A stretch of 64,000 bases of DNA from an uncultured Clostridia bacterium (lineage in GTDB: Bacteria; Bacillota; Clostridia; Christensenellales; UBA1242), in assembly GCA_944350015.1 (NCBI GenBank), contig CALVNW010000003.1, positions 38,907-102,906 on the forward strand. Reading direction: 5' to 3'. Positions 2,869-59,208 of the stretch are shown here, in pieces. Every line of letters starts with the position of its first letter. Positions within the stretch are counted from its first letter, which is position 1. Made by a program: the position numbers and the translations under genes. The notes beneath the pieces were generated by a model. That model ran no database searches. It saw only the letters and a program-made list of their open reading frames with translations, and was not told the DNA's origin.

Positions 2869-2899
2869 AAATTAACAATAACTTTATATGAGGTGTGTT

Positions 2900-5800: not shown

Positions 5801-8800
5801 CTTCTCTATGGCGACACGAACAACTTTAATGCAAGCAGTATAGACGGCTTTGATGAAACGGTAAATGATGGCTATCTTGCAACCACTATTGACAGCGTCG
5901 ATGTGACAAACGTCGATACTGGTGTTTGGGCGTTTGACTTCACAAGCGGGACCTTTGAGTTTGACTTTAATTTTGACTTTACCTACAAAGAGATTACAAT
6001 AAACGCAAGCGGGCTTGTCCTTAACGGCTCCTATGCACCAATAGACGTGACAGAGGATTTGTTTATAGGAAATAGCGGAAGTTTTAGATATAGCTACACA
6101 ATCTCAGACGGACAAGGACAAGTTAGCCTTACAAATGCAAGCTTTGGTGGAATACAAATTCACACTCAATATTATAACCTCGGCTGGTACCTCAAAAATG
6201 GCGAGGTGGTGACGATTGCAAACGGCAATTATAATGACATAGTCACAAATGCCAATTTGATTTCGGCATATCAAGACTTTTCAAGGGCTAGCAACGCCTC
6301 AAACTTTGCTATCAATGTTCAAGCAATCGTTGCGCCAAGAACGGTTACATTAAACTATGCAGGCGGTGAGGAACAGAAGGGAGAGCTAGTAGAACTTGAT
6401 ACCTCAAGCGACACCATAACTTACTCGCAAGGGGTGACTTTAAAGCAGGCATACAAAAACAAGGGTTACACCTTTGCAAATTATAGTTATACAATCGGCA
6501 CAACCAATTTTTCTGCTAAAGCAGGAGCGAACTTTGTTATCACAGGGCTCAACTTTGCAAACCTCTTTGGCAGTGGAAGTTTACTTCAAACTTGGACAAG
6601 TTTTGTCGATGAGAGCGCTCTTACAACCTCATCTGCGACAAATTTAACCCTCGTTTCTAATTGGAGCGTTATCAAATACAACCTCGTTATTGATGGAGTA
6701 ACTACTCAGTCGGCGCTTGAAATTGGCGATGAAATACGTTTTATTGCAAATGAGCCAAGCCTTAAAAATGGGCAGGGTGTATACCATATTTTTAGAGAGG
6801 GAATAGAGGTTGCTTCCTACAACGGCGGAGTGCTTGGCGGATATATTGCGGGCGGATTTGAACTTAGTCTTGAGGGAAAACTTTCAGCAACTATTGACGG
6901 CGATTACGCTTCAATCTTGTTTGACGGAGACAACTTTGATACCCTCATTGGCGCAAACTATGACACACTTCGCAGTATCACTGTGTCAACGATTAGAATT
7001 GCCTCAAGCTATAAGGTCTACATAGAAAATTCTCAGTATTTTGAGGTTACTATAAGTGGCAGTGGAGATAGCTTCGGGCAGGACGAGAACGGCGTTTACG
7101 TTGTTGTAGCCTATAACGCCTTGCCAAGCGTGCTTGACAAAAATAGTGAGGACTTCCTTTTTAACACCTCGTCTATAACAGGCAGAAACATCACAATTAC
7201 ACGTGTAGGCTATACTTTTGAAGGTGATTTTTATAATTTTGACCCAACTGAAATTTTTGACAGCCTCTCAGATATTACGATTAGTCCTATCTTTACAAAA
7301 TCAAACGTTTCAGCAGGCGGGGCAACTATCAAGTTTAGCGACGATTCGACGGGCGCAAACTTCTTCCTTTTAAATAGTCACAATATCACGATAGGTTCGC
7401 TTATAGATTTTGGCGACCTCGAAGATGATAGCGATGACATTACAATCTCGCTTACCGAAGATGAAATTATTCTTTCAAATGGTGACAAGGTGAGTGGATA
7501 CGGTTTTGCGCTTGTAAAAGATGGAGAAACATCCTACTATGAAGGCAACACCTTTAATATTAACAATATCTATGAAGATGGGTTATATTCAATTTACTTC
7601 TATATAGACCTTGTCGACACTTTACATAATTCTAGCGAAAATTATAGTTATAGACTTGGCTCGCAAAGTCTCTCTTTCACAATGAACAAAAACGCTTTTG
7701 GCTTTGACAGTAATTTGGTGTCGGCATATAATGGTACAAGCGAGTTTGTTCCAACCCTTTCAAGTGAAGGTTATAGCAATGTGAATGACTATGGCAGTGT
7801 TTACCTTGTTTATGGTTTTGCTGGCGTGGCAAGCGAAGAGAAGAGAGTAGTCTTTGATACCGAGGACTTCTTTAGAGGTTTTGTACTGACAGGTGGCGAC
7901 TATAATGTTGGCGAAAATAAAGATATAGCCCTTACAATTGACAGTGGCTATTTCACGCAAGTTACAAATATTGGCGGAGTTACGGTAAATTCTACTACCA
8001 ACTTTGCAAACCTTATCAGTGGAGTTGTGGCAAATGGAAGTGATTATGTTTATACCTATGAAGATGGTGCGACTATAGTAAAGGCTAGGTTTACAATCAG
8101 TTTTGGAAACACCTCATCTTATTACTTTGACGGCGTAAAATTGATTGTCTACACTCACGACGGCAATAACAGAACCTTCCAAATAGGTAGAGAGTATTTT
8201 AGTTACAACCTCTCGCGAATTGTCTATACTGGTGGTGCGGTGGATAGTGATACTGTCTTTACTGGCGCTAACAGAAGCGTCTTTGCTGTTGAAGGGTTGA
8301 TGATTGATGGTGAGGACTATCAAAACAATCAAGATAGGTGTTTTGAGTATGTTCTTGACGGTCAATTCAAACTACTAAATTCCGACAATGCGCTTAAAAA
8401 TTACTACTCAACAAGATATTTAACTGCGACAAACGGCGTGCTTAATGATACCCTTCTTCAAGACTACGAAGGGCTTGTGGATGGGCTATACTTAACAGAT
8501 GTTTATGTGGGTGGCATCGAGGTTGAGGTTGAGGGCAGTCAATTTACCTATAATGTTGACGATAATGTCATCTTTAGTGTTGTAAATAACGGCACTGGAA
8601 ACCTTCAAATCTTTGTAAGTAGGTCTGCACTTGCCACTCATACGCTTAGCTACAGCGTTGCAGTTTCGCTAACAAATGAAAGACTTAGCCATTTGACACT
8701 TCTCACTTTTGGAACTTCTCCAAACGGCAGAGATTATGACGAGATGTTAAACTCAGCCTTCTCCGACCCAGGCGGAAATGCCGACCCTTATCAAGTGTTT

Positions 8801-11800
8801 ACAATGTCGGCGGAATCTCAAAATAGCACCTTGTATGCAATTTTGACCGATGTTCGTAAGCTTTCCTTTAATTATAATGGCGGACACAACGAAGAAGGGC
8901 AGACAAGTGACATCATTTACCTATCTTACTCTAGTGCAGGCGGAGAATACATTTTAGGTAATCCAAGCAATAACTATAGCGGGCTTACTTTTAATGGGTA
9001 CTTCTATTCTGCAAATGGGCTTACCGCTGAGCAGAACGGTGCATATGCATACAAATTTGTTTCTCTTGATGGCGGTTCTCCAGTAGAACTTATAGCCCTA
9101 TGGAAACTGACTGGAGTAGATTATACCCCTGTAAGTGGTAGCGTCAATTTGAAAGCAAGCCTTAGCTCACAAGTTATCTATGTCACAAATTTTGTATCGC
9201 CTAAGGTGATTGAAGGGGGAAGTTATAGCTTTACATTAACTAAAAAGGATGACCCTAGTGTAACTTTTAGCTCAAGCGATGTCTTTACTTTTGCAGATTC
9301 GACAGGAAGAGTTCCTATTTCGCTTGGCGGAGAGTATACCCTTACTATTACTTTAACTTTTACCAATATCTATCAGACAAATCAAACAATCAGTCAAGGA
9401 ATTGACGTTGTTATAAATATAGATAAAAGTACAGTAGGCATAATAGGTACAAATGTTTTAACCTTTAATAATGCCGACCGCAAGAATGATATAACACTCC
9501 AAATGAGAGTGAATGGGGGAGCTTCGCCTCAAATGACGCTTACAAGCCTCACCCAAAATGGACTTACAAATTATGGTGTTGATGTGGCGACATCTCCAGA
9601 GGGTGAAATTAGAAATGCAGGGCAGTATGAAGTTGTGCTTTCAATTAACAGTGCATACTCTGACTTCTTTGAGCTTGAAAGTGGCTATGAGAAAATGCAA
9701 GTTACTATTAATAAATATGACTTGACCCTTGCTGACTATGCAAATCAAATAGAAGTCTATAAATTCTTTGGGCAAAGTGACCCAAATCCTATAAGAGATA
9801 CAATAACTGTGTCTCTTGTAAATACAGACAGCGTAGAGCTTAACTTTACAAGGCAGGCTGGAGAGTCGCTTGGTAACCATCCTCTTCTTACCGCCACCTT
9901 GACAGACCCAACAGATATAAACAACTACAATCCCATTACCGATGGCTTCGTTGCGTATTTTGTAATTCGCGTGCCAGACGGCGGATTGTTTGTAAGGCTT
10001 GATGGCAACATAACCTACACCTATAACGGCGAGGCGTTAACATCTCTTAGCACAAGGTATAATAGCAATACTCAAAAGTTTGAGGTATACGGTTTTGAAG
10101 GAAACGAGCAGGTTAGCCAATCGTTTAGCCTTTACTACCTAAGCGAGGGAGAAGAAATAGAGGTTCCTATTTCAGAGAGAGAAACCTATGCAAGATATAT
10201 CACCTTTAACTCATCTTCTGCTGGCAAAAACGTAGGGACCTATGAGTTTAGTGTGAGCTTGTCAAGCGAAGGTCAAGAAGCTGACTGGAGCGAAGCAAAT
10301 ATTGACACAGATTCAATAGCGCAAGACTATAATACTATTACAGTCACTAAGAGAACGATTACCTTAAATGCCATTAGCAAGGCCTTTGACCAATCAAGCG
10401 CCTTCACCTTTAGTATGGGCGGAGAATATAACGGAGTTAGCGCTGATATATCAAACTATATAGAAGTCGACAATATTATTATAAACGGCGTGGCAGAAAG
10501 CGAACTTGCAGGGCAAAGGGAGATTAAAGAGATTGCCCTAGATAGTCTAAGTGAGGCAAACTACACCTTAGAGCTTGCAAGCGGACTTCAACTTTTGATT
10601 ACACCTTCTATCGATGCTATTGAGGTAACATCTAATGTTAGCTCTCTAGCATATGGTACACTTTCACAAGATGACGTTCTATCAAAAATTCTTGAACAGC
10701 TACCTCTTATCTTCAATGAGGGTGAAATAAGCTCTAGTTACATAAATGTAACAGCTTATCAGTTTGTTTCTCCATCTTTCTCAACAGGCGGATACCTTGA
10801 GGCAGGTTCAAATTCAGTTTCAATTACCTTGACTTCAAGCAATTATACGTTTGGCGGGGAAGCTGGCGAAGTAGGAGAGGTATATCAAACTAATATAACC
10901 ATTTCCTTTGAGGTTACAAGGCTTGAGTTTGCAATAAGCAATTCAGACGTACAAATAATAAAGGAATATGATGGGGACAATCTGATTGGTGAGGATAATC
11001 TCAATCAAGTTGTTAACGGACAGTCGAGTCCATATTATTCAGCAGAACTTTTAAGCGGAGATATTATTCGCATCATAGGCGGGCAGTATAACGATAGTGA
11101 AGTCGGCAACAATAAGAAAATCACATTACTTGAATTTGATAGCACTTCTGATGACTCGAACAACTATATTATAACCTATCCAGTCTTGGTAGGTGCTATA
11201 ACAAACCATATTATTACCTTTAATGTTGACGCAACTACCGAGCATATAGACCTTGTCACTGATGGCGCTTTTGTCAAAGACGGTCTTAGTCCTATCGTAC
11301 AAGAGACTTTCTTTACCTTTGAATATCCTAACTTGCTGACAGGGCTTGAGCTATTGTCACAGATGGAGCTTCCTACAAGAGTTGGCTACACCGCAACAGG
11401 CTGGGCATACAAACAAGGAAATAATTACTTGCCAATAACTGTTGACAATATCCAAACGCTTATCAGAGATGTTGCCTTAGACGAGACTAACCCTGACGAG
11501 ACCATAACTATTTATGTTATTTGGCATATAGATAACTACAAAATCACAGTTGCTGGGGATGGTGTTGAAAGTTTTGAGGTAAGCGGTCAGTATTATGACG
11601 AGGAAACTCAAAGCGCAAGATACTTTAGCGATATTTCTATAGACGTTGTTGTAGATAAAGGTTATAAGATAGCAAGATATGAAGTAAACGGCAGTTATTC
11701 GAGGGCTGTTCTTGATGACGTCGATGGAAATAGTGGTACAGCTGAGGTGTTTGGTGTTGGCTCTGACCTTGAAATCACAGTTTATGCAAGCGAAATTGAG

Positions 11801-14800
11801 ATTACATTCAATATTGACACTAACATACCAGATTATACCTCACGCACCGATACAAATAGGACTTACTTAACCTATAAATACCCAGAACTAGTAAATATGT
11901 TTGCAAGAGACCTTCCAGCCTTCAGCGTAACTGCAGGCACATATACACTTGCAGGCTTTAGCTATAGCGGTGGAGATATCGGCGCGCTTTCACTTAAAGA
12001 GGTGGTAGACAACCTCTATCCAAATCTTGACGAAGATGTCAATGTTGACCTTACGGCAAACTGGGCAGGTGTACAATATGTTGTCACCTTCAACCCAGCA
12101 GGAGGCACGCTCACGGGAGAGAGCAGTCAAAAGGTGACTTATGGAAGCGCCTTTACAAGTCCTCTTCCTACTGCAACCTTGCCAGGACGCAGTGGTGTTT
12201 GGACTGATGCAAACGGCGTGACCTATGCAGATGGAAGTGTTTTCCACACAATCGGAACTTTGATTGAAGGGGTATGGAATGCAAGCTTAATTGCCGAATA
12301 CCAAAACAATACCTACATCCTAACCGTGCAGTTTGACAATAGACTTCAAGTTTTCTACAACGGAAGTCGAATTGCAAGTGGGGAGACGTTTGACGTCACC
12401 TATGATACTACTAATATCACTTTCACCATAACACCATTGCAAGGCTATGGCTATGACATTGACACCGATAGCCTTAATGGAAGCGTAACAGAAGGGACAA
12501 ACTCTGTCTCTGTTTACAATCTCACTGAGGACGGCGTTCTCAATATTGTTACAGTGCGTGGCACAAACAGAATGACTATTGCTGGCTATAATATCGACGG
12601 TTACAGCGTGATTATTGACGATGTTGAACAGCCAACAAATTCAGTGTATAACGTGCTTACTGAAAGCATCGTTAAGATTACTTTCACGGCAAGCTTTGGC
12701 TATGAGTTTGAAGAAAGTTGTCTAAGCCATACAACTACAGATTCAACTATCGACATTGAAATATCACAAGACAAAAAGACGATGACTGTCACTTGGAGTA
12801 ACTTTACTTCTGACATAACCTTTACGGTGGAGGCAAATCCAACGCTCAACACAGTGACCTATAATGATGTAAGTTCAATTTTCACAAGCCTTCAATTTAA
12901 TGGCGAAAGCGTCGCTCTTGTTGGGGGAGAGTATGGAGTTTATACCGAAGAAGGTTTGGAAATTGTTGCCACTTTAAGATATGGCTACTTTGACGGTAAG
13001 GTGACGGCAAGCATTGCCTCTTTCTTGACAGGTCAAGAATGTAACTATTTAAGGGCTGACGGACTTTATCATCTTGAGGCAAGCTTAGAGGACATAAATG
13101 AAAGTTTTAGCCTGACTTTTACCGCCACCGAGCGAAGTTATAACTTTGTAATAGCGGTTGAGAGCGGTAGCGAGGAGATTGGACAGATTACCGTATCTCA
13201 AAGTCAAACAGTTCAATTTGGACAGAACGTTCAGCTTGGCGTAACTTTACTTAGAGAAGATTATGTGTTCGCAGGTTGGAAGTTTAATGGCGAAATCATC
13301 TCAAGGACTGAAAATTCAAGTATTGAGCTTACCTCTTCGCTTAGACAGATGCTTGAAAGCGTAACGCCAGGACAGAGCATAACCATCTATGCAACCTTCA
13401 TCGACAGGGTGACAAGTATATCCTTCACTGCTGGTAATCACGGGCAGATAATCTTCTATCAAGAGGACAGCGCTCCAACAACTGTCAATGGTGGGCGAAC
13501 TGAAATTGGAAAGGTTAGATATGGTTATGACCTTATCATAGACATTTTGCCAGACGAGGGCTATAGACTTGACAAAATTCTAGTAGACGGAGAGGTTACA
13601 ACCGAGGGCTATGACCAAGAAACTTCAAAATTTACCATTTATTTGGATGCGGTGGAAGGAATATCAACTGTAGAGATTACCTTCACGGCAAAAGAAATCA
13701 CTGTAAACGTGCAAGCAGTTGTTCAACGCAATTATGAGCTTATATATGGCGACCCAACGGGCGGACTAATCTATCTTGTAGACTCCGAAGGTGTAAGGCT
13801 TGGCGATGAATATTACATCTGCTCAAGCGATAAGTTATACTTTGATTACACTGTAGATTCGGTGACTAACGGCACACTCTACTTCGCTTTGGAAACAAGG
13901 AGCGGTTATAATGCAATCTTAAATTCTACGACAGAGGGCGTTGTTGTAAGCGAGTACACGGCAAACGGCACTAGAATTTGGGCGGTAAGTGGATTATGCC
14001 AAGGAGCAAATATTCAAGCTATATTTATTGCCGTTGAAAATAATATCGAGGTTAGATTTGTAACCGCTGACACTACAACAGCGCTCAGTGCAGGACAAAT
14101 CAGAGTTGATACCTCATCAATAGATGTTAGAGCAAGTCAAAACAACACTCACAACACCTTTATCAGCGTGGTTACAGGGGCAACAATCAGTATGGATATC
14201 TACTCTATGTTCACCTATGACCTTCTTGCCGACGAACAAGGGAACTTAAACTACTATGTTGTCTATAGTAACGGAGCTTTTGATGAGGGTGCAGTTGTGG
14301 CAGGGCTTGTTGAAGAGAGTGATATCTACTCAAACGGCTTTACAAAACGTGCAACTCTTGAAATTACAAATGCGAATGCAAGTGCGACCATCTACATACT
14401 TGTCGAACCTAGAGTGTACAGCCTAAACTTCTATGTAACAGAGAATATATCAGTCAAGATTGAAAATGCGTTAATTTATGGTCAGGCACTTCCTATGACA
14501 AGCCTTACAGAAGAACAGCGCGCTCTTGTGTTCTCAACGAGAAGTGGCTATACCCTTGGCGGTTACTATACGATGCAACTTGCAAAAGGCACTCATTATC
14601 TAGACGGCAATGGTAACTTGCTCAAAAATTGGAGTGAGACTGGCTATAGATGGACAGGTTATGGCTATGTGCCAACCGACAACTTCGATGAGGCTACTCA
14701 AACCTTTACTATATATGCCGCTTGGATATATGATAGAGCGTCTATTGATTTGAATTTCTTGCCTATCGGGTTTAGCGGTAACTTTGTGAACTTAAATATT

Positions 14801-16438
14801 AAAAACTTTATCACGAATATCGCAAGCATCGGTGATAACGTTTGGATGAACCAAACTGACAATTGGTATGTCGAGGTGCCAGCAGGAGTAACTCTTCACT
14901 TTGACTCTATCCCAGTTGAAGGTTATCAGTTTATAAACTTCCTTGTCTCTATCAATAATGGTGAGACAGTGACGTGCGAGGGTGGCTTTGACCTTGAGTA
15001 TAGCGCTGGTTCATACAGTGTCACAGCGATTTATCAACCAATTCTAACCTTGACTACTACCGAGGGCGGAAGCGCTCAGGGCTTGCAAAGTGGTGTCGAA
15101 ATTGGGCAGTCATTCTCGCCTGATATCCCTCTCACTTTAAGGGCTACGGCAGAGGAAGGGTACAACTTCTTGTACTTCTTAAATATAGAAACCAACGAAA
15201 GGTACTATGCACAGTTTGATAATGCTAGCGGAAGTTATAACTATACTTTTGTTGATTTAATATCTACGCCTCTTAGAATTAGAGCGGTCTTTGAAGGCAA
15301 GCCAATTACTATAAACATTGACTTTACAGGTGCCTCGGGTATACATAGAATTCTCAATGTTTACCTTGATGACAGAGCGGTAAGTTATTCAGGACAAATC
15401 CTTGCCAATGTCGGACAGAGCCTTGTCATCGTCATTGAAAGAGAGTATGGCTATGCTATCGCAGTAGATGGCGGTATCTACAGTGAAAGTGTTGACAATA
15501 ACGGAAATTATAGATACACCTTTGCGCTTACCGCTGAGGGTCTTATTGAGGACGGCGAGAGTTATATACTTGACATCGATATTGATGCAACTCGAGAAAA
15601 CGTCAACCTCAGCTTTGATATGAAAGTTAAAGACGCGGTTAATGATAACGAAATCTTGCGCGCAGGAACGTTAAGCTATGTGGACGGAGATGGAAATACG
15701 TATAATGACATCAAAGCTGGCTCAGCCTACCAAATCTTGTATGGAGAAAGTGTCAGCTTAAGGGCATATACGAGTGCTAACTATAGAGTTTCTGATGTTT
15801 TACTTGATTACGATGGTGAGCAGGTAAGTTTGATGAGCTATCTTTTAGACAACACCCTTATCATCAACGAGTCCTTCTTAAATCGCTATCAAGCATACAA
15901 CCTCAAGATAACAATTGTCTATTCAAGACTTGTGTGGACCGATGAAGAAGTTTTGTCAGGATATATTGAAGGCACAAGCAGACTTCTTGGCAGTGGAACG
16001 GCAAGCAATCCTTACTATATAAGAAGCACACAAGAACTTGCCTTTGTCGCATATGCTGTCAACAATGGATTAACCAATAGTGATGACATCCTCTATAGCG
16101 AGGCATATTACGAGATAGTTGCCGACATTAGCCTTAGCGGAAGATTCTGGGAACCTATCGGCGTTCCAGATAGTCCTTTCAATGGCACGATGGACCTTGG
16201 CGAGTATGTAATATCGGGCTTAATTCTTTACAGAAGTTATCCAGCGCCAGAGTTATCTTATGGTGGTTTGTTCTGGTGCCTTGGTGATAATGCAAGGATA
16301 CTTAAAGATACAGACACTTTGACGCTTGTGCTTTGGATAATTTTCGCGCTCATTATACTTGCGATTATCATAGTAATCATTGTACACTACTACAGAAAAT
16401 ACAAGAGAAGAAAGATGAACGATATTGCAAATAATTAA
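2900..16438 (+). CDS. giant (about 4,510 aa) membrane-anchored surface protein with GLUG-type end modules and Listeria-Bacteroides-type repeats
   Basis: Uninterrupted 13.5-kb ORF. GAGG lies 6 nt before ATG 2900 (the track start 2888 is also possible). N-terminal signal peptide (LLLLALGLILFVPKVES). Repeated V.F..nGG....YG....P.P.R.GY.F.GW-like units (e.g. YVVTFNPAGGTLTGESSQKVTYGSAF..LPGRSG, YVFAGWKFNG, RSGYTLGGYY). N- and C-terminal modules (..DIDLQGAIWTPIGT..PFSGVFDGNGHKI.. and ..ADISLSGRFWEPIGVPDSPFNGTMDLG..). C-terminal TM helix plus RKYKRRK stop-transfer tail. Confidence 0.93.
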   Translation: MLRRCLKGFSCVALLLLALGLILFVPKVESENFSTQALSLAEGKGDDSLAKLSSEAWLDSGAITQVTSDDIMFINGNISPEGDYYYIKTALGLASVAYHINNGDKDYLSAIFLLGNDIDLQGAIWTPIGTAEHPFSGVFDGNGHKISNVVVQPVGVSSGSGQGLFGNINNAIISDLILDGTYSISEPTGGTLVGVATNSMIVSVRDNALDDVGGNASMQQIYTIGSNSSNVQVFLSTATLVRELKSIDPETSEVIFTLSIADLGELGKVDSQANIDFAGYAVYYFTANTSIYKYVNDELVNYFIVLVDKTFNDFSGSLVLPNSVYKANTYPEGYVSLMMKKNAIYFTHKPKLREQLSPTDTEVPYVVSRGYKVAIETPSVNDCYCLISPSEAYQTTLNLNYGYGNRVAIISGSYYDYSLDDMFGENAYLTDRLGFTVKSISTQSKGNISQEPSFYYNYPSYPSDTVNFEWTPLNDRGFDFYFLIDSESHADGSLTYAELSSAIGGVSVNKGTLDTNLVATNGRYTVKGLTSDDDNLANEVTLTFTLDAGYEISVVEEGGTQGSLIVDEDDVNNGFDGNNSYAYSKTSGVYLNFTNFTGEGESYNSANANNDSYCQVSASGSVRNTSGSGIVSSREERTYSITLSNIVGTTGNVYIVVKRAGEEINVVTSVYAFEDADLDSFSYTIDGAEYRENSFYIRGGLGQTVELTLKIDDDVNYFVLSANTSSSALTVSQVPVDGGRQMTVNGRTYYSYVTFRITVNSTEEEMALNVGIGGLRSYFKFVVQDGEGNILSPSAEDNSTKGISAVVNDIEGVGLNSTGLTEVREREGTLSDYVGVVANGYYIPTHITINHTGQGDVVTNAVLTFNEMTGRYEWTTTAPGQNIFNQIYQGGQDVDFTITITVKEAEFTLGWENFTFNISNGESVTSYTGGDNLEFLDDLFSLSFSSTVFVPGQSGRVTLTLTSLGLALLYGDTNNFNASSIDGFDETVNDGYLATTIDSVDVTNVDTGVWAFDFTSGTFEFDFNFDFTYKEITINASGLVLNGSYAPIDVTEDLFIGNSGSFRYSYTISDGQGQVSLTNASFGGIQIHTQYYNLGWYLKNGEVVTIANGNYNDIVTNANLISAYQDFSRASNASNFAINVQAIVAPRTVTLNYAGGEEQKGELVELDTSSDTITYSQGVTLKQAYKNKGYTFANYSYTIGTTNFSAKAGANFVITGLNFANLFGSGSLLQTWTSFVDESALTTSSATNLTLVSNWSVIKYNLVIDGVTTQSALEIGDEIRFIANEPSLKNGQGVYHIFREGIEVASYNGGVLGGYIAGGFELSLEGKLSATIDGDYASILFDGDNFDTLIGANYDTLRSITVSTIRIASSYKVYIENSQYFEVTISGSGDSFGQDENGVYVVVAYNALPSVLDKNSEDFLFNTSSITGRNITITRVGYTFEGDFYNFDPTEIFDSLSDITISPIFTKSNVSAGGATIKFSDDSTGANFFLLNSHNITIGSLIDFGDLEDDSDDITISLTEDEIILSNGDKVSGYGFALVKDGETSYYEGNTFNINNIYEDGLYSIYFYIDLVDTLHNSSENYSYRLGSQSLSFTMNKNAFGFDSNLVSAYNGTSEFVPTLSSEGYSNVNDYGSVYLVYGFAGVASEEKRVVFDTEDFFRGFVLTGGDYNVGENKDIALTIDSGYFTQVTNIGGVTVNSTTNFANLISGVVANGSDYVYTYEDGATIVKARFTISFGNTSSYYFDGVKLIVYTHDGNNRTFQIGREYFSYNLSRIVYTGGAVDSDTVFTGANRSVFAVEGLMIDGEDYQNNQDRCFEYVLDGQFKLLNSDNALKNYYSTRYLTATNGVLNDTLLQDYEGLVDGLYLTDVYVGGIEVEVEGSQFTYNVDDNVIFSVVNNGTGNLQIFVSRSALATHTLSYSVAVSLTNERLSHLTLLTFGTSPNGRDYDEMLNSAFSDPGGNADPYQVFTMSAESQNSTLYAILTDVRKLSFNYNGGHNEEGQTSDIIYLSYSSAGGEYILGNPSNNYSGLTFNGYFYSANGLTAEQNGAYAYKFVSLDGGSPVELIALWKLTGVDYTPVSGSVNLKASLSSQVIYVTNFVSPKVIEGGSYSFTLTKKDDPSVTFSSSDVFTFADSTGRVPISLGGEYTLTITLTFTNIYQTNQTISQGIDVVINIDKSTVGIIGTNVLTFNNADRKNDITLQMRVNGGASPQMTLTSLTQNGLTNYGVDVATSPEGEIRNAGQYEVVLSINSAYSDFFELESGYEKMQVTINKYDLTLADYANQIEVYKFFGQSDPNPIRDTITVSLVNTDSVELNFTRQAGESLGNHPLLTATLTDPTDINNYNPITDGFVAYFVIRVPDGGLFVRLDGNITYTYNGEALTSLSTRYNSNTQKFEVYGFEGNEQVSQSFSLYYLSEGEEIEVPISERETYARYITFNSSSAGKNVGTYEFSVSLSSEGQEADWSEANIDTDSIAQDYNTITVTKRTITLNAISKAFDQSSAFTFSMGGEYNGVSADISNYIEVDNIIINGVAESELAGQREIKEIALDSLSEANYTLELASGLQLLITPSIDAIEVTSNVSSLAYGTLSQDDVLSKILEQLPLIFNEGEISSSYINVTAYQFVSPSFSTGGYLEAGSNSVSITLTSSNYTFGGEAGEVGEVYQTNITISFEVTRLEFAISNSDVQIIKEYDGDNLIGEDNLNQVVNGQSSPYYSAELLSGDIIRIIGGQYNDSEVGNNKKITLLEFDSTSDDSNNYIITYPVLVGAITNHIITFNVDATTEHIDLVTDGAFVKDGLSPIVQETFFTFEYPNLLTGLELLSQMELPTRVGYTATGWAYKQGNNYLPITVDNIQTLIRDVALDETNPDETITIYVIWHIDNYKITVAGDGVESFEVSGQYYDEETQSARYFSDISIDVVVDKGYKIARYEVNGSYSRAVLDDVDGNSGTAEVFGVGSDLEITVYASEIEITFNIDTNIPDYTSRTDTNRTYLTYKYPELVNMFARDLPAFSVTAGTYTLAGFSYSGGDIGALSLKEVVDNLYPNLDEDVNVDLTANWAGVQYVVTFNPAGGTLTGESSQKVTYGSAFTSPLPTATLPGRSGVWTDANGVTYADGSVFHTIGTLIEGVWNASLIAEYQNNTYILTVQFDNRLQVFYNGSRIASGETFDVTYDTTNITFTITPLQGYGYDIDTDSLNGSVTEGTNSVSVYNLTEDGVLNIVTVRGTNRMTIAGYNIDGYSVIIDDVEQPTNSVYNVLTESIVKITFTASFGYEFEESCLSHTTTDSTIDIEISQDKKTMTVTWSNFTSDITFTVEANPTLNTVTYNDVSSIFTSLQFNGESVALVGGEYGVYTEEGLEIVATLRYGYFDGKVTASIASFLTGQECNYLRADGLYHLEASLEDINESFSLTFTATERSYNFVIAVESGSEEIGQITVSQSQTVQFGQNVQLGVTLLREDYVFAGWKFNGEIISRTENSSIELTSSLRQMLESVTPGQSITIYATFIDRVTSISFTAGNHGQIIFYQEDSAPTTVNGGRTEIGKVRYGYDLIIDILPDEGYRLDKILVDGEVTTEGYDQETSKFTIYLDAVEGISTVEITFTAKEITVNVQAVVQRNYELIYGDPTGGLIYLVDSEGVRLGDEYYICSSDKLYFDYTVDSVTNGTLYFALETRSGYNAILNSTTEGVVVSEYTANGTRIWAVSGLCQGANIQAIFIAVENNIEVRFVTADTTTALSAGQIRVDTSSIDVRASQNNTHNTFISVVTGATISMDIYSMFTYDLLADEQGNLNYYVVYSNGAFDEGAVVAGLVEESDIYSNGFTKRATLEITNANASATIYILVEPRVYSLNFYVTENISVKIENALIYGQALPMTSLTEEQRALVFSTRSGYTLGGYYTMQLAKGTHYLDGNGNLLKNWSETGYRWTGYGYVPTDNFDEATQTFTIYAAWIYDRASIDLNFLPIGFSGNFVNLNIKNFITNIASIGDNVWMNQTDNWYVEVPAGVTLHFDSIPVEGYQFINFLVSINNGETVTCEGGFDLEYSAGSYSVTAIYQPILTLTTTEGGSAQGLQSGVEIGQSFSPDIPLTLRATAEEGYNFLYFLNIETNERYYAQFDNASGSYNYTFVDLISTPLRIRAVFEGKPITINIDFTGASGIHRILNVYLDDRAVSYSGQILANVGQSLVIVIEREYGYAIAVDGGIYSESVDNNGNYRYTFALTAEGLIEDGESYILDIDIDATRENVNLSFDMKVKDAVNDNEILRAGTLSYVDGDGNTYNDIKAGSAYQILYGESVSLRAYTSANYRVSDVLLDYDGEQVSLMSYLLDNTLIINESFLNRYQAYNLKITIVYSRLVWTDEEVLSGYIEGTSRLLGSGTASNPYYIRSTQELAFVAYAVNNGLTNSDDILYSEAYYEIVADISLSGRFWEPIGVPDSPFNGTMDLGEYVISGLILYRSYPAPELSYGGLFWCLGDNARILKDTDTLTLVLWIIFALIILAIIIVIIVHYYRKYKRRKMNDIANN

Positions 16439-16720: not shown

Positions 16721-16882
16721 GATAGCGGGGAATTTAAAGATTTTTTATCATTTTTATATCCGCTCACTTGCAAGATGGGAAAAATCAACAAAATTCAACA
16801 ATTTTCATCAATTTTCAACACTGCGAACGCTTTTATTTGTGGATAAAAAGTGCTATCTTTAGAATTAGTAAAAGGAGACAAA

Positions 16883-17626
16883 ATGGAAAACAAAGAAAAT
16901 ATAAGATTGTACATTGCAGATGAGGTAAGAGATAATGAGTTGTATAACTATTTCAAAAACAAAGAGGGCTACCAAGTGGTAGGCGCTGGCACTGCTGGCT
17001 TGCAGGTGGTAAAGGACGTCAAGGTGATGCGCCCAGATTTTCTTATTAGCGAAGTAATGCTTTCTGAGATAGATGGCTTTAAGGTTTTTGAAACGCTAAA
17101 AGAAGAGATGGGAAGTGAGTGTCCTAAGGTGATATTTGTAAGTTCGCTAACGCATTCGGGCTTTGTATCAAAGGCTATGAAAGAGGGTGCAAGCTATTTT
17201 ATGTTTAAACCTATTATGCCTGAAAATTTAGAGGAGAGATTGCAAGACATACTTAGTCCAAATCTTGTTGTCGACCCAAGCAAAGTTTTAGACGAGAGAA
17301 TAGCAAGCATATTCATCAGTATCGGCATCCCTGCCCATATCAAAGGCTATCAATTTTTAAGAGAGGCGGTTAAGCTTGCCGTTCAGGAGCCTGATATGAT
17401 AAGCCAAATCACAAAGAAACTCTATCCAACGATAGCCGAAAAGTTTGAGACAAGTTCCTCTAAAGTCGAGCGCGGTATGCGTCACGCGATTGAAGTGGCT
17501 TGGAATAGAGGCAAGATTGAAAACATTAACAACATATTTGGTTTCAAAGTTTACAGTAACAACGAGAAACCTACAAATAGCGAACTTATTGCTCTTATTG
17601 CCGACAAAATGATTATGGACGGCTAG
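16883..17626 (+). CDS. spo0A: sporulation master regulator Spo0A (atypical receiver domain)
   Basis: C-terminal Spo0A-specific domain (IGIPAHIKGYQFLREA...SKVERGMRHAIEVAWNRG...KPTNSELIALIADK). AAAGGAGA lies upstream of ATG 16883. The receiver domain has E at the expected phospho-Asp position (see findings). Confidence 0.9.
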   Translation: MENKENIRLYIADEVRDNELYNYFKNKEGYQVVGAGTAGLQVVKDVKVMRPDFLISEVMLSEIDGFKVFETLKEEMGSECPKVIFVSSLTHSGFVSKAMKEGASYFMFKPIMPENLEERLQDILSPNLVVDPSKVLDERIASIFISIGIPAHIKGYQFLREAVKLAVQEPDMISQITKKLYPTIAEKFETSSSKVERGMRHAIEVAWNRGKIENINNIFGFKVYSNNEKPTNSELIALIADKMIMDG

Positions 17627-18306: not shown

Positions 18307-18368
18307 TTGGCAGTAACTATTGCAATTGGTGATATCTCTGAGGTAAAATCTTGCCAAAGGAGATAAGA

Positions 18369-19871
18369 ATGATAAGTTTAAACGACAATTTAGAAAAGCT
18401 AAAGAGGGAACTTTGGCATCTTAACAATGTTAAACTTCCCAAGCTTCAACAGCTCATTGAGGAAAGTGGCATCGGCGATCTAACAAGCATCAATAGCGCG
18501 CTTTCACAGTGCCAAACTGATATTGGTGCGCTTGAAAACAACATCACTACCCTTCAAAGCAGTATTTCGTCAAACGGGCAGTCAATCACCTCACTACAAA
18601 ACAATTTAAACACCGCGATTGACGATATAGACACGATATATGGTGTTACAACTGGACTTGAAAGCGACGTTTCCTCTCTTCAAAATAGTGTAAATGACAT
18701 TAACAGTACAGTAACTTCGCTTGATAGTGATATCACCTCGATAGAAGGCGACATTGGTACTATAAATTCTAGTATAGATGAAGTGGCACTTAGTATTGAA
18801 AGCATCAACAACAATCTTGACTTTGTGCTTGGCAAGCTTGAAACGCACAATTCGTCGATTATAAGCGCCAATCAAGCGATTATAGCTTTAGGCACCAAAT
18901 CTAACACACTTGAAGATAATATTGAGACGTTGACCTCCACAGTTGATGACTTAAGCACTACAGTGAACGGCTTAAACTCTACAGTAAGCGGAATAAGCAC
19001 TACGGTGAACGGCTTGAACTCTACAGTGAATAGCTTAAGCACTACAGTAGATGACATAGATACAGCAGTTGAGGGGTTAAGCTCGTCAGTCAACACGATA
19101 AACACCACCCTAGACGAACTTGATGGCATCGACGAAACGATTGAAGGGCTTAGCACAAACCTTACAAGTCTAAACGCAAATGTTACAAGCCTAACTTCAA
19201 CTATCAACTCTCACGCCACCTCTATAAGCACATTGACCTCAAATCAAAATGATTTGATGTCCGATTTTTATCCGCTTGAGACCGAACACGACCAGCTTAT
19301 GACCAATTTCGAAACGCTATCAACAAATCATAATACTTTAGCGTCAACGGTGTCTACCTTGTCTGCAAAACATACCGAATACGATAGTGCGATTACAGAG
19401 ATTGAAGGCGATATCACAAGTTTGACAACGCGAGTTACAACTCTAGAAAATTCCTCTGGCAGTTCTTCGGGTGGTGGAGGGGGAAGCCAAATTGTAACCG
19501 TCTACGATAGGTCAAGTGATGACCCAAGTATAAACAAAAATTTGCCAAACGGCTTGGTTATAGGGAACGCCTTGTCAATTGACTTGACGGCATATAGCGC
19601 AGTAACCTTATTTTACAACCTCAACGGCACAGGCGCGCAAGCGACTTTTAGGATTGACCAAAGCAGAGAAACGGTAGACTTTTCAATCTATGCTGGAAGT
19701 AATGGTTTTTCGAAACATTACACTACAAAGTTGACGGTAGCAAAAAGCAGAAGAATAATATCTACAAGTTTCGTTGCAGAGATAGTTGTTGGTAGCAATG
19801 GGTCGGTATCACAAACGTTAAAGTCACAAGATGCAAACTTTTATATCTATAGAGTTGATGGTATAAAGTAA
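18369..19871 (+). CDS. heptad-repeat (coiled-coil) fibre-like protein with a C-terminal globular domain
   Basis: AAGGAG lies 6 nt before ATG 18369. About 350 aa of Ser/Thr/Asn-rich heptads (LSTTVNG LNSTVSG ISTTVNG LNSTVNS...), then a Gly-rich linker (SSGSSSGGGGGS) and a beta-rich C-terminal domain of about 115 aa. No signal peptide. Confidence 0.8.
   Translation: MISLNDNLEKLKRELWHLNNVKLPKLQQLIEESGIGDLTSINSALSQCQTDIGALENNITTLQSSISSNGQSITSLQNNLNTAIDDIDTIYGVTTGLESDVSSLQNSVNDINSTVTSLDSDITSIEGDIGTINSSIDEVALSIESINNNLDFVLGKLETHNSSIISANQAIIALGTKSNTLEDNIETLTSTVDDLSTTVNGLNSTVSGISTTVNGLNSTVNSLSTTVDDIDTAVEGLSSSVNTINTTLDELDGIDETIEGLSTNLTSLNANVTSLTSTINSHATSISTLTSNQNDLMSDFYPLETEHDQLMTNFETLSTNHNTLASTVSTLSAKHTEYDSAITEIEGDITSLTTRVTTLENSSGSSSGGGGGSQIVTVYDRSSDDPSINKNLPNGLVIGNALSIDLTAYSAVTLFYNLNGTGAQATFRIDQSRETVDFSIYAGSNGFSKHYTTKLTVAKSRRIISTSFVAEIVVGSNGSVSQTLKSQDANFYIYRVDGIK
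18954..19048 (+). repeat. in-frame 42-bp tandem repeat (2.3 copies) inside the fibre-like gene
   Basis: Units 18954-18995 and 18996-19037 differ at a few positions. A partial third unit spans 19038-19048. Confidence 0.85.
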
Positions 19872-27379: not shown

Positions 27380-27901
27380 TCATAGATACTAGCGTAAACT
27401 CAAAAGAAAAAGATGCTATTGATATTCACCTTTGGTTCCGCTCGTGCTGCCGCACTCGCTCTCTTCGCTCCGCTCGCGCCCGCGGGACCATAGCCCCCGC
27501 GAGGCACGTCGCTCCGCTATCTCTCCGAATAAGCGAGTAGAAAGTAGTACAATAACCTTTCTCTTATATTAATAGAAGATAGCCAACCTTAGGTTGGACC
27601 AATATCGGCAAACTTAGTTTGCATCAGTATCGTTTATTGTACCTGTAATTTTACTGTATCTTGGTCTGTCGGAGTAACCTAAAAAAGATGCTGACATCAC
27701 CTTTAATCGCCGAAAGGCGCGTATTTTAGTTGCCAAAGGCAACCAAAATACCCCTTAGAAACCCTAAAGCTTAGAAAGACCCCACATTCTTTCGAGCCTT
27801 ACGCTCGGCGATTTTAATCATCCTCATAGCAAGAAATTACGGAGAGATAAGCGCTCGTAGCATTTTTTGGTGATAATTTCGAGCGAAGTACGTCAATTTG
27901 C

Positions 27902-27965
27902 TTGACAAAAAATGCGGGGGGGGTAAAATAGGTTAGCAAAAATAAATTTTTGCTAACCTATTTTA
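27902..27965 (+). promoter_or_regulatory. P1 promoter with a G8 tract in its spacer, with the -10 embedded in a perfect palindrome (copy 1)
   Basis: TTGACA 27902-27907. 16-nt spacer ending in G8 (27916-27923). TAAAAT 27924-27929. Palindrome arms 27924-27943 and 27946-27965. Confidence 0.55.
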
Positions 27966-28064
27966 TATTTTTCATATATTTTAGTTTAATTTACTCTTAA
28001 AACAACAAATTAAAAATATTTTAAAATTTGTTATTAAATTTGACGCAATTGTGACGACACGCCT

Positions 28065-28093
28065 GTGACAAAGGGTAAATTAAAGGTTAAAAT
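28065..28093 (+). promoter_or_regulatory. P2 candidate proximal promoter (copy 1)
   Basis: GTGACA, 17-nt spacer, TAAAAT. The block is conserved in copies 1, 2 and 4. TGTGAC occurs twice (28050-28055, 28064-28069). Confidence 0.35.
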
Positions 28094-45246: not shown

Positions 45247-45725
45247 ATTTAAAACTCCTTTTAAGATATAAAAATCATAAGATTGTCACTTAAGACAAGA
45301 ACAATTATATAATATATATAAAATAAAACCAAACAAAAAAGAGTTGAAAAATGTTGAAAAGTGTTGAATAATGTTGAATTAACCTTAGTTTTTCAGTCTT
45401 ACGCTTGCACCAACCTTAGGTTGCGAGCCTCACGCTCGGCGCCAGCATTATGCTGGACATTTATCGTAGAATTTGTCTGTTATTGTGTTGTACCTTGGTC
45501 CAGCAAGCCTTACGCTTGGCGATTATCGTTGAGTGCAACTGTTGTTTTATTGTATCTTGGTCCGCCAGAGTATATTAAAAGAAGAAGTGTCGAGGACACT
45601 TTTAATCGCCGAAAGGCGCGTATTTTAGTTGCCAAAGGCAACCAAAATACCCCTTAGAAACCCTAAAGCTTAGAAAGACCCCACATTTTTTGTCTGAAAA
45701 ATTTTTTCGAAGTACGTCAATTTGC

Positions 45726-45789
45726 TTGACAAAAAATGCGGGGGGGGTAAAATAGGTTAGCAAAAATAAATTTTTGCTAACCTATTTTA
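45726..45789 (+). promoter_or_regulatory. P1 promoter with G8 spacer tract and palindrome (copy 2)
   Basis: TTGACA 45726-45731, G8 45740-45747, TAAAAT 45748-45753. Palindrome arms 45748-45767 and 45770-45789. Confidence 0.55.
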
Positions 45790-45888
45790 TATTTTTCATA
45801 TATTTTAGTTTAATTTACTCTTAAAACAACAAATTGAAAATATTTTAAAATTTGTTATTAAATTTGACGCAATTGTGACGACACGCCT

Positions 45889-45917
45889 GTGACAAAGGGT
45901 AAATTAAAGGTTAAAAT
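45889..45917 (+). promoter_or_regulatory. P2 candidate proximal promoter (copy 2)
   Basis: GTGACA, 17-nt spacer, TAAAAT. Confidence 0.35.
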
Positions 45918-45953: not shown

Positions 45954-46042
45954 AATACTAGATTATTTTACGCAAAGTAATATTAAAAACAAATGCCGAA
46001 AGGTGCCTCTTACTACGAGAGGGTTTTTAAAAGGAGAAAGGT

Positions 46043-48247
46043 ATGAAAAGTTTAAAAGTCAAATTAGTGTCAATAGTGTCGGCGTTTATACTAGCCTTGT
46101 CATTGCTGATAGTTGGAGTATGGGCGGTAGGGAGCCAAACCATTAAACTAAAGGGTAGCGTTACGTTTGAGGTAACAGATAAAAGATTGTATATTAAAGA
46201 TGTTCGTATGCAAGAGAGTATGGATGGTCAGCCTTATAGCTTAAAAGAAGGGGGAGAGTTTATACCTGGGTTTGTTAATACAAGCTTTAGTATGGATTTA
46301 GGCACGTTTGTTAACAGTTACGGCTCCTTTGCCTTATACTTTGATGTCATTAATACGATGGATGAGCAAACAAGTGAGGCTATAGCATATATTGTAGAAC
46401 AAATTACAGCACCAAGCAATGCATCGACAAGCGTGTATTTATTAGACGTAAATGGAATTGAAACAAATAAAATCCCAGAGGGGACAGTGTTTCCTACAGA
46501 AATAAATCCAGACACCCCCATTTCAGCGACAATAAAACTTATTATCACATCGACTCCAAGTGCGCAAGTTGATTTAAATGAAATAGTGCTTACGTTGAGT
46601 GAGTATGAGGCGCAAACTTATGAGTATTTTACTTTTGATATAAACGAAGATAATTCAACAGTGACCTTAACTAAATTTAATGAAGATTTAGCGAATGGAC
46701 TTACAGACATAGTTATACCCGAGAAGGTGGACTGCGTAAACGATGTATGGGTAGATGGTGACAGATATACAGTTACAGCGCTAGCTGGAGGCTCTACTTC
46801 TAACTCGGGAGTGTTTTATAATGCCGGAATAACGAGTATAGAATTGCCTTCAACATTAGAGAGCATTGGAGACTTTACATTCTATGCTTGCAATAGCCTG
46901 CAACCATCAATAACCGACCAAGAGGGTGTAAAATATTTAGGCAATGAACAGAACCCATATATGGTATTATGGGATGGTGATGGCTTAACAACTACAACAT
47001 ATACTGTCAATTCAAACTGTAAATTTATATATACAAATTCGTTTTATTATAATGACAAGCTTACAAACATAGATTTAAGTAAATCTGCAAACTTAATAAG
47101 CATAGGGATAAGTGCATTTAGAGGTTGTCAGATCACAAGTCTTGACTTAAGTGACTGTGCAAATTTAACAAGTATAGGGAGTTCTGCATTCTCTGGTTGT
47201 GACGGTCTTGAAGGGGATTTAAATTTAAAAGCTTGTACAAGTTTAACAAGTATAGGCGATGAAGCATTTTGGAGTTGTTATAATCTTACAGGCCTAACCC
47301 TACCAAATAGTTTAATTAGTATAGGTGATGAGGCGTTTACAGCAATTAGAGAACTTACTGGAACGGTAACAATACCAGCTAGTGTAATGGAAATAGGAAT
47401 CAATCCATTTGGTAGTTGCTGGAGCCTAGAAGGTTTAGTAGTAGAAGAAGAAAATAGCAAATACTATAGCAAAGGTAGTAATTGCATTATAGAAAGTTCA
47501 ACGGATGCAGTAGTGTCAGGCTGTAAAAATTCAACTTTGCCTAGTGATGTTAAATCAATAGGTGAGCGAGCATTCCATCAATGTGAAGAACTAACAAGTA
47601 TAGACTTTAGTAAATGTACTAGTTTATCAAGCATAGACAACTCAGCATTTGACCAGTGCACTGGACTTAAAAGTATAAATTTAAGAGAATGCACTAGTTT
47701 AACAAGTATAGGGGAGTCTGCATTCGAGTATTGCACTGGACTTAAAAGTCTGAGTTTGCCATCAAGCTTAATAAGTATAGGGAGAAGTGCGTTTGACAGT
47801 TGTGAAAACCTTACGGGAACGTTAAACCTAAGTAATTGCACAAGACTAACAAGCATAGGGGTACGTTCATTTTCACAATGCAAGATTACAAGTTTAAGTT
47901 TGCCATCAAGTTTAACGAGTATAGAGAGTAATGCGTTTAGAGAGTGCGAAAGTCTTGAAAATATAACTTTGGCAGAAGGTTTAACAAGTATAGGGGATTA
48001 TGCATTCGCCTCTTGCACTACGCTTACAAATATAACCTTGCCATCAAGTGTAACTTTTATAGGGAAGGGCGTGTTTTATAATTGTGCTTATTTGAATTCG
48101 GTGAGATTTAGCAATACTTCAGGGTGGTATATTACAGAGGATGAGACGGCGACAAGCGGAACAGGCATAACAGTTAGCAATTCTAGTACTAATGCAACAA
48201 ATTTAAAAACAACTTATCGTAGTTACTATTGGAAACGTAATGTGTAG
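46043..48247 (+). CDS. secreted surface protein with a TasA/camelysin-like signal peptide, an N-terminal beta-rich domain and a long BspA-type LRR array
   Basis: MKSLKVKLVSIVSAFILALSLLIVGVWAVG N-terminus. About 14 LRR units (..LTSIGxxAFxxCxxL..). C-terminal tail ..VSNSSTNATNLKTTYRSYYWKRNV. Confidence 0.92.
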   Translation: MKSLKVKLVSIVSAFILALSLLIVGVWAVGSQTIKLKGSVTFEVTDKRLYIKDVRMQESMDGQPYSLKEGGEFIPGFVNTSFSMDLGTFVNSYGSFALYFDVINTMDEQTSEAIAYIVEQITAPSNASTSVYLLDVNGIETNKIPEGTVFPTEINPDTPISATIKLIITSTPSAQVDLNEIVLTLSEYEAQTYEYFTFDINEDNSTVTLTKFNEDLANGLTDIVIPEKVDCVNDVWVDGDRYTVTALAGGSTSNSGVFYNAGITSIELPSTLESIGDFTFYACNSLQPSITDQEGVKYLGNEQNPYMVLWDGDGLTTTTYTVNSNCKFIYTNSFYYNDKLTNIDLSKSANLISIGISAFRGCQITSLDLSDCANLTSIGSSAFSGCDGLEGDLNLKACTSLTSIGDEAFWSCYNLTGLTLPNSLISIGDEAFTAIRELTGTVTIPASVMEIGINPFGSCWSLEGLVVEEENSKYYSKGSNCIIESSTDAVVSGCKNSTLPSDVKSIGERAFHQCEELTSIDFSKCTSLSSIDNSAFDQCTGLKSINLRECTSLTSIGESAFEYCTGLKSLSLPSSLISIGRSAFDSCENLTGTLNLSNCTRLTSIGVRSFSQCKITSLSLPSSLTSIESNAFRECESLENITLAEGLTSIGDYAFASCTTLTNITLPSSVTFIGKGVFYNCAYLNSVRFSNTSGWYITEDETATSGTGITVSNSSTNATNLKTTYRSYYWKRNV

Positions 48248-48380: not shown

Positions 48381-48713
48381 AGGAACTCTAAAGTTTAGAA
48401 AGCCCCCACACCAACCTTAGGTTGGACCAGTAGCGTTGAGTGTATCTGTAATTTTATTTTACCTTGGTCCACAAAAACATTAAAAATAATCCTCTTTTTG
48501 GGGTTACAGATAGCGTGTCGCATTTTTTCGAGCCTTACGCTCGGCGTTTTCAACCATCCTCATTGGTAGTTTTTGCGGAGAGATAAGCGATCGTAGCATT
48601 TTTTGGTGATAAATTCGAGCGAAGTACGTCAATTTGCTTGACAAAAAATGCGGGGGGGGTAAAATAGGTTAGCAAAAATAAATTTTTGCTAACCTATTTT
48701 ACAGTAAAAAGGA
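48381..48713 (+). repeat. conserved mosaic upstream cassette, copy 3 of 4 (before gene 48720)
   Basis: Has the ctaaagtttagaaagccccc block, the ccaaccttaggttgg hairpin, a 40-nt unit (48431-48470), the cgagccttacgctcg block and the promoter/palindrome. It lacks the P2/leader part. Confidence 0.85.
48638..48701 (+). promoter_or_regulatory. P1 promoter with G8 spacer tract and palindrome (copy 3)
   Basis: TTGACA 48638-48643, G8 48652-48659, TAAAAT 48660-48665. Palindrome arms 48660-48679 and 48682-48701. The RBS follows within 10 nt. Confidence 0.6.
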
Positions 48714-48719
48714 GTGAAT

Positions 48720-58909: not shown

Positions 58910-59208
58910 TTAATTTTAAGCGTATTGGAGAAAACGCTTAAAATTTATTAAGATGTCTTTCTAAACATCTTGACCTAATTATAGCACAAGAATTTTCAAA
59001 AATCAACTAAATACAACATATTTTGTAAAATATTTTACAAAATGTGCAAAATTTAACAAAACCTTATATGTGGGTTACAGATAGCGTGTCGCATTTTTTC
59101 GAGCCTTACGCTCGGCGTTTTTAATCACCCTCATTGACAGAAATTACGGAGTAGTAAAGTGTAGGAGCATTTTTTGGTGATAATTTCGAGCGAAGCACGT
59201 CAATTTGC

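Follow-up and report, generated by a model that had tools for sequence, protein, structure and literature searches.

Upstream of several genes for secreted proteins in an uncultured Clostridia bacterium lies a promoter-like sequence whose spacer is half filled by a run of eight G residues, which raises the question of whether changes in the length of this run control the genes behind it. The preliminary description of the locus had proposed a slipped-strand phase-variation switch. We followed up this proposal in the stretch of 64,000 nucleotides from which it was made, called the window hereafter, and in orthologous loci (numbered L001, L002 and so on) that were gathered by exact-protein look-ups and pattern scans across assemblies, using consensus contigs only. 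Assemblies with these loci include ERZ28614847 (SAMEA6814446), ERZ24773273 and ERZ24773513.

The P1 unit and the genes behind it

The unit, designated P1, is present four times in the window:

Copy 1, 27902–27929, plus strand: TTGACAAAAAATGCGGGGGGGGTAAAAT, that is TTGACA-aaaaatgc-G8-TAAAAT, with G8 at 27916–27923
Copy 2, 45726–45753, plus strand: TTGACAAAAAATGCGGGGGGGGTAAAAT, with G8 at 45740–45747
Copy 3, 48638–48665, plus strand: TTGACAAAAAATGCGGGGGGGGTAAAAT, with G8 at 48652–48659
Copy 4, 59209–59236, plus strand: TTGACAAAAAATGCTGGGGGGGTAGAAT, with T at 59223 and G7 at 59224–59230 (TG7, 59223–59230) and the -10 hexamer TAGAAT

This arrangement, TTGACA-16-TAAAAT with G8 in three copies and TG7/TAGAAT in one, was as first described, the coordinates being exact letter by letter. 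The repeat is modular, and its invariant core in the window copies extends from an upstream block, CGAAGTACGTCAATTTGC, through the P1 unit. Long G/C runs had been called conspicuous in DNA so rich in A and T, and this was borne out: the GC content of the window is about 36% (about 32–42%), and a homopolymer census gave three runs of G8, one of G7, one of G6 and no C run of at least 6, with the P1 tracts as the only G/C runs of at least 7.

The genes downstream of the four copies are:

Gene 1, 28159–29898, plus strand: 579 aa, signal peptide, BspA-type LRR_5 repeats
Gene 2, 46043–48247, plus strand: 734-aa LRR_5 protein
Gene 3, 48720–50087, plus strand: 455 aa, resembling the family in its signal peptide and first ≈60 residues, with no Pfam domain
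Gene 4, 59527–60912, plus strand: 461-aa LRR_5 protein

A signal peptide and N-terminal region are common to the four proteins, and BspA-type LRR_5 repeats to three of them (genes 1, 2 and 4). The family has no other member in the window; P1 is found upstream of all four genes, and all four starts (28159, 46043, 48720 and 59527) have a good Shine–Dalgarno sequence. The view of these genes as four surface-protein paralogs thus stands for the shared signal peptide and N-terminus, and loosely for copy 3, given its limited likeness. A fifth copy of the unit, from the same sample, lies upstream of a gene for a 993-aa LRR protein. No match was found when the proteins of copies 1 and 3 were looked up by exact sequence, and the protein family has few divergent members (23 clusters). 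Across loci, the targets are signal-peptide proteins with LRR_5 or Flg_new_2 domains and, in L034, a YadA adhesin. The association of the unit with surface-protein genes therefore holds for all four copies in the window, with an exception elsewhere, in L023, where one copy precedes a MetRS-like gene.

The window also contains a Spo0A gene (16850–17626), and its host belongs among the spore-forming Clostridia. A single ORF of 4516 aa occupies 2888–16438, and Spo0A and then a long coiled-coil protein (18351–19871) are encoded just downstream.

In a consensus scan, P1 scored 11 of 12 against the promoter consensus, with a spacer of 16 nt. However, sites scoring at least 9 of 12 are common in this AT-rich DNA (86 observed in 20 kb, with 57 expected), so that the match alone proves little, and the weight of the case for P1 rests on its repetition and cross-species conservation. 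In copy 3, no strong promoter-like match other than P1 lies between the terminator-like hairpin of the upstream gene and the ribosome-binding site, in agreement with the earlier observation that no other promoter-like element precedes that site. It had also been pointed out that one additional G would bring the spacer to 17 nt; the tRNA-Val promoter in the window, TTGACA-17-TATATT, is itself spaced in this way, showing 17 nt to be a normal spacing in this organism.

We compared 25 distinct units from several species. The -35 hexamer is TTGACA in 23 of them, and the -10 hexamer occurs as TAAAAT, TACAAT, TAATAT, TAGAAT, TAAACT or TATCAT, always keeping T1, A2 and T6. Spacers are 16 nt long in 15 units, 17 nt in six, 15 nt in three and 19 nt in one. 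Contigs from other species with unrelated flanks still carry the unit, near divergent family members, for example:

TTGACA-aaaaattc-G8-TACAAT
TTGACA-caaaagtc-G8-TAATAT
TTGACA-aaaaaggc-G7-TAAAAT
TTAACA-aaaaatgc-G8-TACAAT
TTGACA-aaacattc-G9ag-TAAAAT

The conservation spans about -60 to +8 and then ends. The tract sits between TTGACA and TAnnnT, and every G run of at least 7 in 147 kb of related DNA falls inside this unit. Since the hexamers are conserved across species according to sigma-70 rules, they appear to behave like a sigma-A promoter. An alternative promoter, such as one of the sigma-F type, was rejected by eye because its -35 element does not fit. At four loci with a short architecture (copy 3, L019, L011 at 3013 and L033), P1 is the only plausible promoter upstream of the Shine–Dalgarno sequence, which together with the ATG lies within 55–110 nt of the unit; in copy 3, both follow directly after the palindrome described below. 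The MetRS-like gene in L023 lies 150 nt downstream of its unit (at 15916) and has a promoter of its own, TTGACA-17-TATTAT.

A scan of viral contigs recovered the layout in L034 (IMG/VR UViG_3300029549_000256, a contig classified as viral), where TTGACA-aaaaatgc-G8-TATCAT at 4654–4683 lies 165 nt upstream of a gene for a trimeric autotransporter adhesin of the YadA type (1479 aa, with ESPR and SLH domains). The next intergenic region, after the adhesin gene, has another such unit, TTGACA-N9-G8, at ≈9466–9493. By its sequence, this contig has the G8 spacer layout in a different lineage and with an unrelated adhesin family. Two large serine recombinases are encoded just upstream of the G8/adhesin locus. 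One further match from a metagenome scan, L018, was unrelated coding sequence.

Tract length between assemblies

If the tract were a switch, its length should differ between strains. The upstream block and P1 of each copy, with the lengths found at orthologous sites, are as follows:

27884–27929, plus strand: copy 1, its block kept across the 25 distinct units
45708–45753, plus strand: copy 2 (identical 734-aa protein), G8 in the window and L010, G7 in L011 and L012
48620–48665, plus strand: copy 3, G8 in the window, G9 in L011
59191–59236, plus strand: copy 4, TG7 in the window and L016, G8 in L015

Two loci in related species differed in the same way, with G7 in L001 and G8 in L022, and G8 in L002 and G9 in L021. 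Between-strain heterogeneity, whose absence would have refuted the switch by the terms of the preliminary description, was thus found at orthologous sites (G7/G8, G8/G9 and TG7/G8), with one related species as a counterexample, having G8 at all three loci in three samples each. The G7 form of copy 2 came from two different samples, at 8x (L011) and 36x coverage. Over 3.1 kb, L012 has 99.8% identity to the window; only two indels separate them, and the tract accounts for one.

As a control, we compared other homopolymers at orthologous positions. A/T runs of at least 7 were altered in one of 28 comparisons, whereas G/C runs of at least 6 were altered in three of 12, all three being promoter tracts; a coding G6 in tilS did not change in any comparison. 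These results mark the tract as a local hot spot of length change and suggest that it is hypermutable relative to its surroundings.

The T-interrupted tract of copy 4 had been suggested to be a locked variant. This view is weak, since copy 4 retains a run of seven G and the same locus has G8 in another strain, L015. A truly interrupted tract is found in L003 and L020, two assemblies that share an identical G5AG3 form and a spacer of 17 nt.

A length-variable tract need not be a switch. P1 might be a real promoter in which the G-tract is a functional sequence element, with G7, G8 and G9 as tolerated slippage noise. A protein might bind such an element, or it might act as a rigid block of GC pairs that sets the promoter geometry or limits the palindrome. 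G8 is the commonest length (14 of the 25 units, in a range of G7–G9) and is invariant in the one species just mentioned, and the tract could for these reasons be a conserved sequence element. It is also always G on the coding strand, its flanks AAAAAnnC (5') and TAnnnT (3') are kept across species, and one copy stands before a housekeeping gene, the MetRS-like gene of L023. Moreover, conservation as strong as that of the hexamers is seen in the 5' half of the spacer and in the block upstream of the -35, beyond what a plain promoter needs, which hints at a bound factor. On the other hand, a sequence-specific site would be unlikely to tolerate changes of ±1 base, which were seen in three of about seven orthologous comparisons, and the lengths found correspond exactly to spacers in the functional range, 15–17 nt. 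An association with surface proteins, which here extends to an unrelated adhesin family, is what usually marks a contingency locus. We therefore regard a fixed element of this kind as an unlikely, if reasonable, account of the tract.

Other differences between assemblies concern the surroundings of the unit. L007, with an identical tilS (compared with 27600–27900 in the window), and L011 at 3013, with an identical 734-aa gene (compared with 48638–48720), differ from the window in their upstream modules and palindrome type, and at copy 3 the downstream gene also starts differently. Such mosaics, as read from the contigs, would point to exchange between the paralogous promoter regions, by recombination or by gene conversion. 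In L017, at ≈540–560, the conserved upstream module ends exactly at AAAAAATGC (…TTGACAAAAAATGC), precisely where the G-tract would begin, and gives way to unrelated DNA that includes an rsmD-like gene; at a coverage of 2.8x, this may reflect a chimeric contig instead of a real recombination point. We also considered contig ends at the element as a mark of tract heterogeneity and rejected this idea: the ends lie about one k-mer length inside the shared repeat (128 nt past the repeat start in L005) and thus reflect collapse of the repeat.

The palindrome and other structured elements

Directly 3' of the G-tract, all four window copies have a perfect palindrome of 42–43 nt, in which the -10 hexamer forms the start of the left arm:

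27924–27965, plus strand: copy 1, 19-bp stem with a loop of 4 nt
45748–45789, plus strand: copy 2, perfect, 19-bp stem
48660–48701, plus strand: copy 3, perfect, 19-bp stem
59231–59273, plus strand: copy 4, differing arms with complementarity kept, TAGAAT/ATTCTA and GGGTATCC/GGATACCC

This structure raises the second alternative, that the hexamers are incidental and the region is the 3' end of a structured, repeated intergenic RNA or DNA element. TTGAC would then be one half of a small hairpin, TAAAAT the A-tract arm of a terminator or palindrome, and the G-run a basal spacer. The pairing of the palindrome is indeed well kept. Among nine distinct versions from several assemblies, nine of the 19 stem pairs had changed on both sides and 99.4% of cells were paired; no shuffle equalled the observed covariation, and shifting the partner by one column reduced the pairing to 46%. 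Positions 3 and 5 of the -10 hexamer each belong to a covarying pair. L032, which is another scaffold of the window's sample, has another compensated variant, GGGTATCG/CGATACCC. A scan called the copy 1 palindrome terminator-like, and a T-run follows it in copies 1, 2 and 4. In addition, the ≈500 nt upstream are free of ORFs, built of hairpin modules and fold well, and the -35 is surrounded by a 9-bp inverted repeat, GCATTTTTT/AAAAAATGC.

Other observations speak against this alternative. The palindrome is restricted to the species group of the window and is absent from more distant species and from L002 and L021, where TTGACA-Gn-TAnnnT remains; the units of L002, L021 and L023 lead into a different structured leader. 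No covariation was seen in the GTCAA/TTGAC hairpin over the -35, where TTGAC is constant and only the partner arm drifts, so the constraint on the -35 is one of sequence. At four loci (copy 3, L019, L011 at 3013 and L032) the T-run is missing, the palindrome passing straight into the Shine–Dalgarno sequence and ATG, and tilS and the 734-aa gene each have their own terminator upstream of the element. Searches of the window and related loci with Rfam 15 at the gathering score found tRNAs only, and permissive scans added only chance hairpin matches far below threshold. Incidental hexamers thus seem rather improbable to us.

The palindrome itself has 0 internal G·U pairs among 171 cells, which points to Watson–Crick complementarity at the DNA level, or homogenization by template switching, and away from selection on RNA alone. 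The full hairpin has a folding energy of -27 to -31 kcal/mol and a z-score of about -7 (copy 1, -27 and -7.1; copy 4, -30.9 kcal/mol); its stem is very A/T-rich, with only four G–C pairs. RNA starting ≈7 nt after the -10 would keep only a 7-bp A/U stem of -6 kcal/mol, and the full 19-bp hairpin could form only in DNA or in RNA reading through from upstream. Our best guess is that the palindrome may insulate against upstream read-through or act as a supercoiling-sensitive cruciform that controls the -10.

Several known kinds of element were considered and rejected. An invertible promoter does not fit, as GCATTTTTT/AAAAAATGC flanks only ≈37 nt and the ≈30 copies recovered all have the same orientation relative to the gene. 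There is no reverse transcriptase for a DGR among the window ORFs scanned, and an integron attC site is excluded by perfect arms with no extrahelical bases or core sites.

Copies 1, 2 and 4 have a second promoter-like element, P2, that is absent from copy 3:

28065–28093, 45889–45917 and 59373–59401, plus strand: P2, GTGACA-17-TAAAAT, in copies 1, 2 and 4

P2 is kept in L023 and L027. Being nearer to the gene, it may leave little for P1 to contribute in these three copies. Direct repeats precede it (TGACGCAAT, TGTGAC…TGTGAC; 28040–28093, 45864–45917 and 59348–59401) and are kept in other species as ATGACnnnnATnATGACG; their pattern suggests a candidate response-regulator site that overlaps the -35. 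The Shine–Dalgarno sequences of genes 2 and 4 are directly preceded by a terminator-like stem, CCTCT-TACTACG-AGAGG followed by GTTTTT (46006–46028 and 59490–59512, respectively), which copies 1 and 3 lack and which may serve as an attenuator in the leader.

The hairpin modules upstream of the units (27400–27900, 45380–45700, 48395–48620 and 59075–59190) include C[GA]AGC-CTYAC-GCT[CT]G-GCG, CCAACC-TTA-GGTTGG and GNRA-capped stems, in combinations that vary by copy; they had no Rfam match. Strains differ by an indel of one 15-nt module, at 27580 in the window. The fifth copy, in L032, is preceded by the same ≈500 nt as copy 1, with the GC-rich block that lies at 27430–27520 in the window. In a related species, L023 has a cloverleaf-like element upstream of its G8 units (7280–7410 and 15500–15620), in which a 9-bp closing stem, GAGGCTTGC/GCAAGCCTC, surrounds three hairpins. 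The stem sequences of these hairpins are entirely different between the two copies while the layout is the same, and this may be a structured RNA or DNA element that has yet to be described. A GC-rich structured module of ≈250 nt, …GGGnnCACCC…AACGCGGGCAC…CCGACCC…GGACCCGnAAGG, occurs in L002 from 7245, in L021 from 268 and in L023 at 7590–7800 and 15620–15880; it lies 3' of the G8 unit at three loci and 5' of it at the fourth, and it too had no Rfam match.

Probable tuning by the G-tract and its known counterparts

The weakest alternative, that the tract differences are artefacts of Illumina metagenomes at poly-G, gains something from consensus contigs of partly low coverage (L011, 8x; L017, 2.8x) and frequent contig breaks within the repeat, but is very improbable given that copy 2 had G7 in two independent samples, one at 36x, that TG7 in copy 4 and G5AG3 each appeared in two assemblies, that the same contigs showed no change in the coding G6 or in 27 of 28 long A/T runs, and that the breaks fit the repeat boundaries and not the tract.

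The explanation that we favor, and consider somewhat probable from the sequence comparisons, is that slippage in the G homopolymer of the promoter spacer retunes the transcription of each gene among spacings of 15, 16 and 17 nt. P1 would be a portable cassette, extending from about -60 to +8, with a promoter of the sigma-A type whose spacer consists of a fixed 8-nt half (AAAAAnnC) and the G homopolymer. Slipped-strand mispairing would move the tract among G7, G8 and G9, and with it the spacing among 15, 16 and 17 nt, so that transcription of each surface-protein gene could be retuned heritably, reversibly and independently. Since the observed spacers are 15–17 nt long, the effect is likely to be graded, and the tract would act as a volume control with weak, intermediate and strong settings, more than as a strict on/off switch. 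A promoter-spacer repeat switch is thus probable, and rheostat would be the better term for it. The firing of P1, the dependence of expression on spacing and the adaptive value are all inferred from sequence.

The locus has several features of a promoter-spacer contingency locus: a tract of at least seven G, polymorphism between strains and surface-protein targets, with the MetRS-like gene as the exception. The phase-variation switch of the preliminary description is therefore retained in part. It withstood the tests that sequence alone allows: tract polymorphism, hexamer conservation and the nature of the targets speak for it, while the constancy of G8 in one species and the position of the -10 inside a covarying palindrome do not. 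The latter, in which the -10 covaries with the distal arm, is not predicted by a simple promoter model.

Promoter-spacer repeat-length switches are textbook knowledge for Neisseria, Haemophilus and mycoplasmas. In Mycoplasma hyorhinis, each member of the vlp surface-lipoprotein family has a poly(A) tract in its promoter spacer. By analogy, P1 may work especially like vlp: both have a multigene surface family, a conserved 5' region for each gene, a homopolymer between the -35 and -10 that would allow independent tuning by slippage, and promoter regions that look homogenized among paralogs. Unlike vlp, the tract here is poly-G, the host is one of the spore-forming Clostridia and the proteins are of the BspA-type LRR kind; further differences are the spacers of 15–17 nt with their likely graded effect, the covarying palindrome over the -10 and the presence of P2 in three of four copies.

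P1 may also resemble the porA (poly-G) and opc (poly-C) genes of Neisseria meningitidis, where spacers of ≈15, 16 and 17 nt give low, medium and high expression, respectively. Shared features are a G/C homopolymer between the -35 and -10 of a surface-protein gene and strain-to-strain polymorphism of the tract. However, porA and opc are single genes of a Gram-negative pathogen with tracts of ≈9–14, whereas here tracts of G7–9 form part of a repeated cassette in gut Clostridia that is known from sequence alone.

Phase variation in gut commensals is known chiefly for invertible promoters, in Bacteroides and a few Clostridia, and in the literature we found no report of a promoter-spacer repeat switch of this kind, nor of this system, in Clostridia. 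For the palindrome, intrinsic terminators or insulating hairpins that overlap promoters and the cruciform-controlled promoters reportedly described by Horwitz and Loeb in 1988 offer the closest likeness, in having a long perfect inverted repeat, here including the -10, with A- and T-tract flanks and -27 to -31 kcal/mol. In contrast to these, the stem here is A/T-rich, the T-run is confined to some copies, G·U pairs are lacking and the palindrome is absent in distant relatives.

A counterpart on the protein side is found in Candidatus Mycoplasma girerdii, in which BspA-like proteins phase-vary by frameshifts in intragenic dinucleotide repeats and the variants were tracked in metagenomes (PMC5476646). 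That organism is likewise affiliated with the Firmicutes and has BspA-like LRR surface proteins, whereas the repeat in our locus is a homopolymer in the promoter spacer, which would imply transcriptional control.

A more elaborate scheme would join these elements in a composite cassette, in which the G-tract sets the spacing and the -10, lying in a DNA-level palindrome, couples repeat tuning to gating by supercoiling or read-through. Such a cassette would have been spread and homogenized by gene conversion across the adhesin family, and similar G-tract promoters would have arisen independently before Negativicutes adhesins. We offer this scheme as speculation that is unlikely to hold as a whole; if true, it would imply a widespread, unrecognized layer of phase variation in gut Firmicutes.

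The covarying palindrome that includes the -10 lies outside the classic promoter-spacer model. In tuning by the G-tract, the sequences probably present a known type of mutational volume control in a new bacterial group. If the tract does tune expression, TTGACA-N8-G7–9-TAnnnT would be a signature by which such loci can be found and followed in metagenomes at the level of reads, and uncultured spore-forming gut Clostridia would diversify their BspA-type LRR surface proteins cell by cell.
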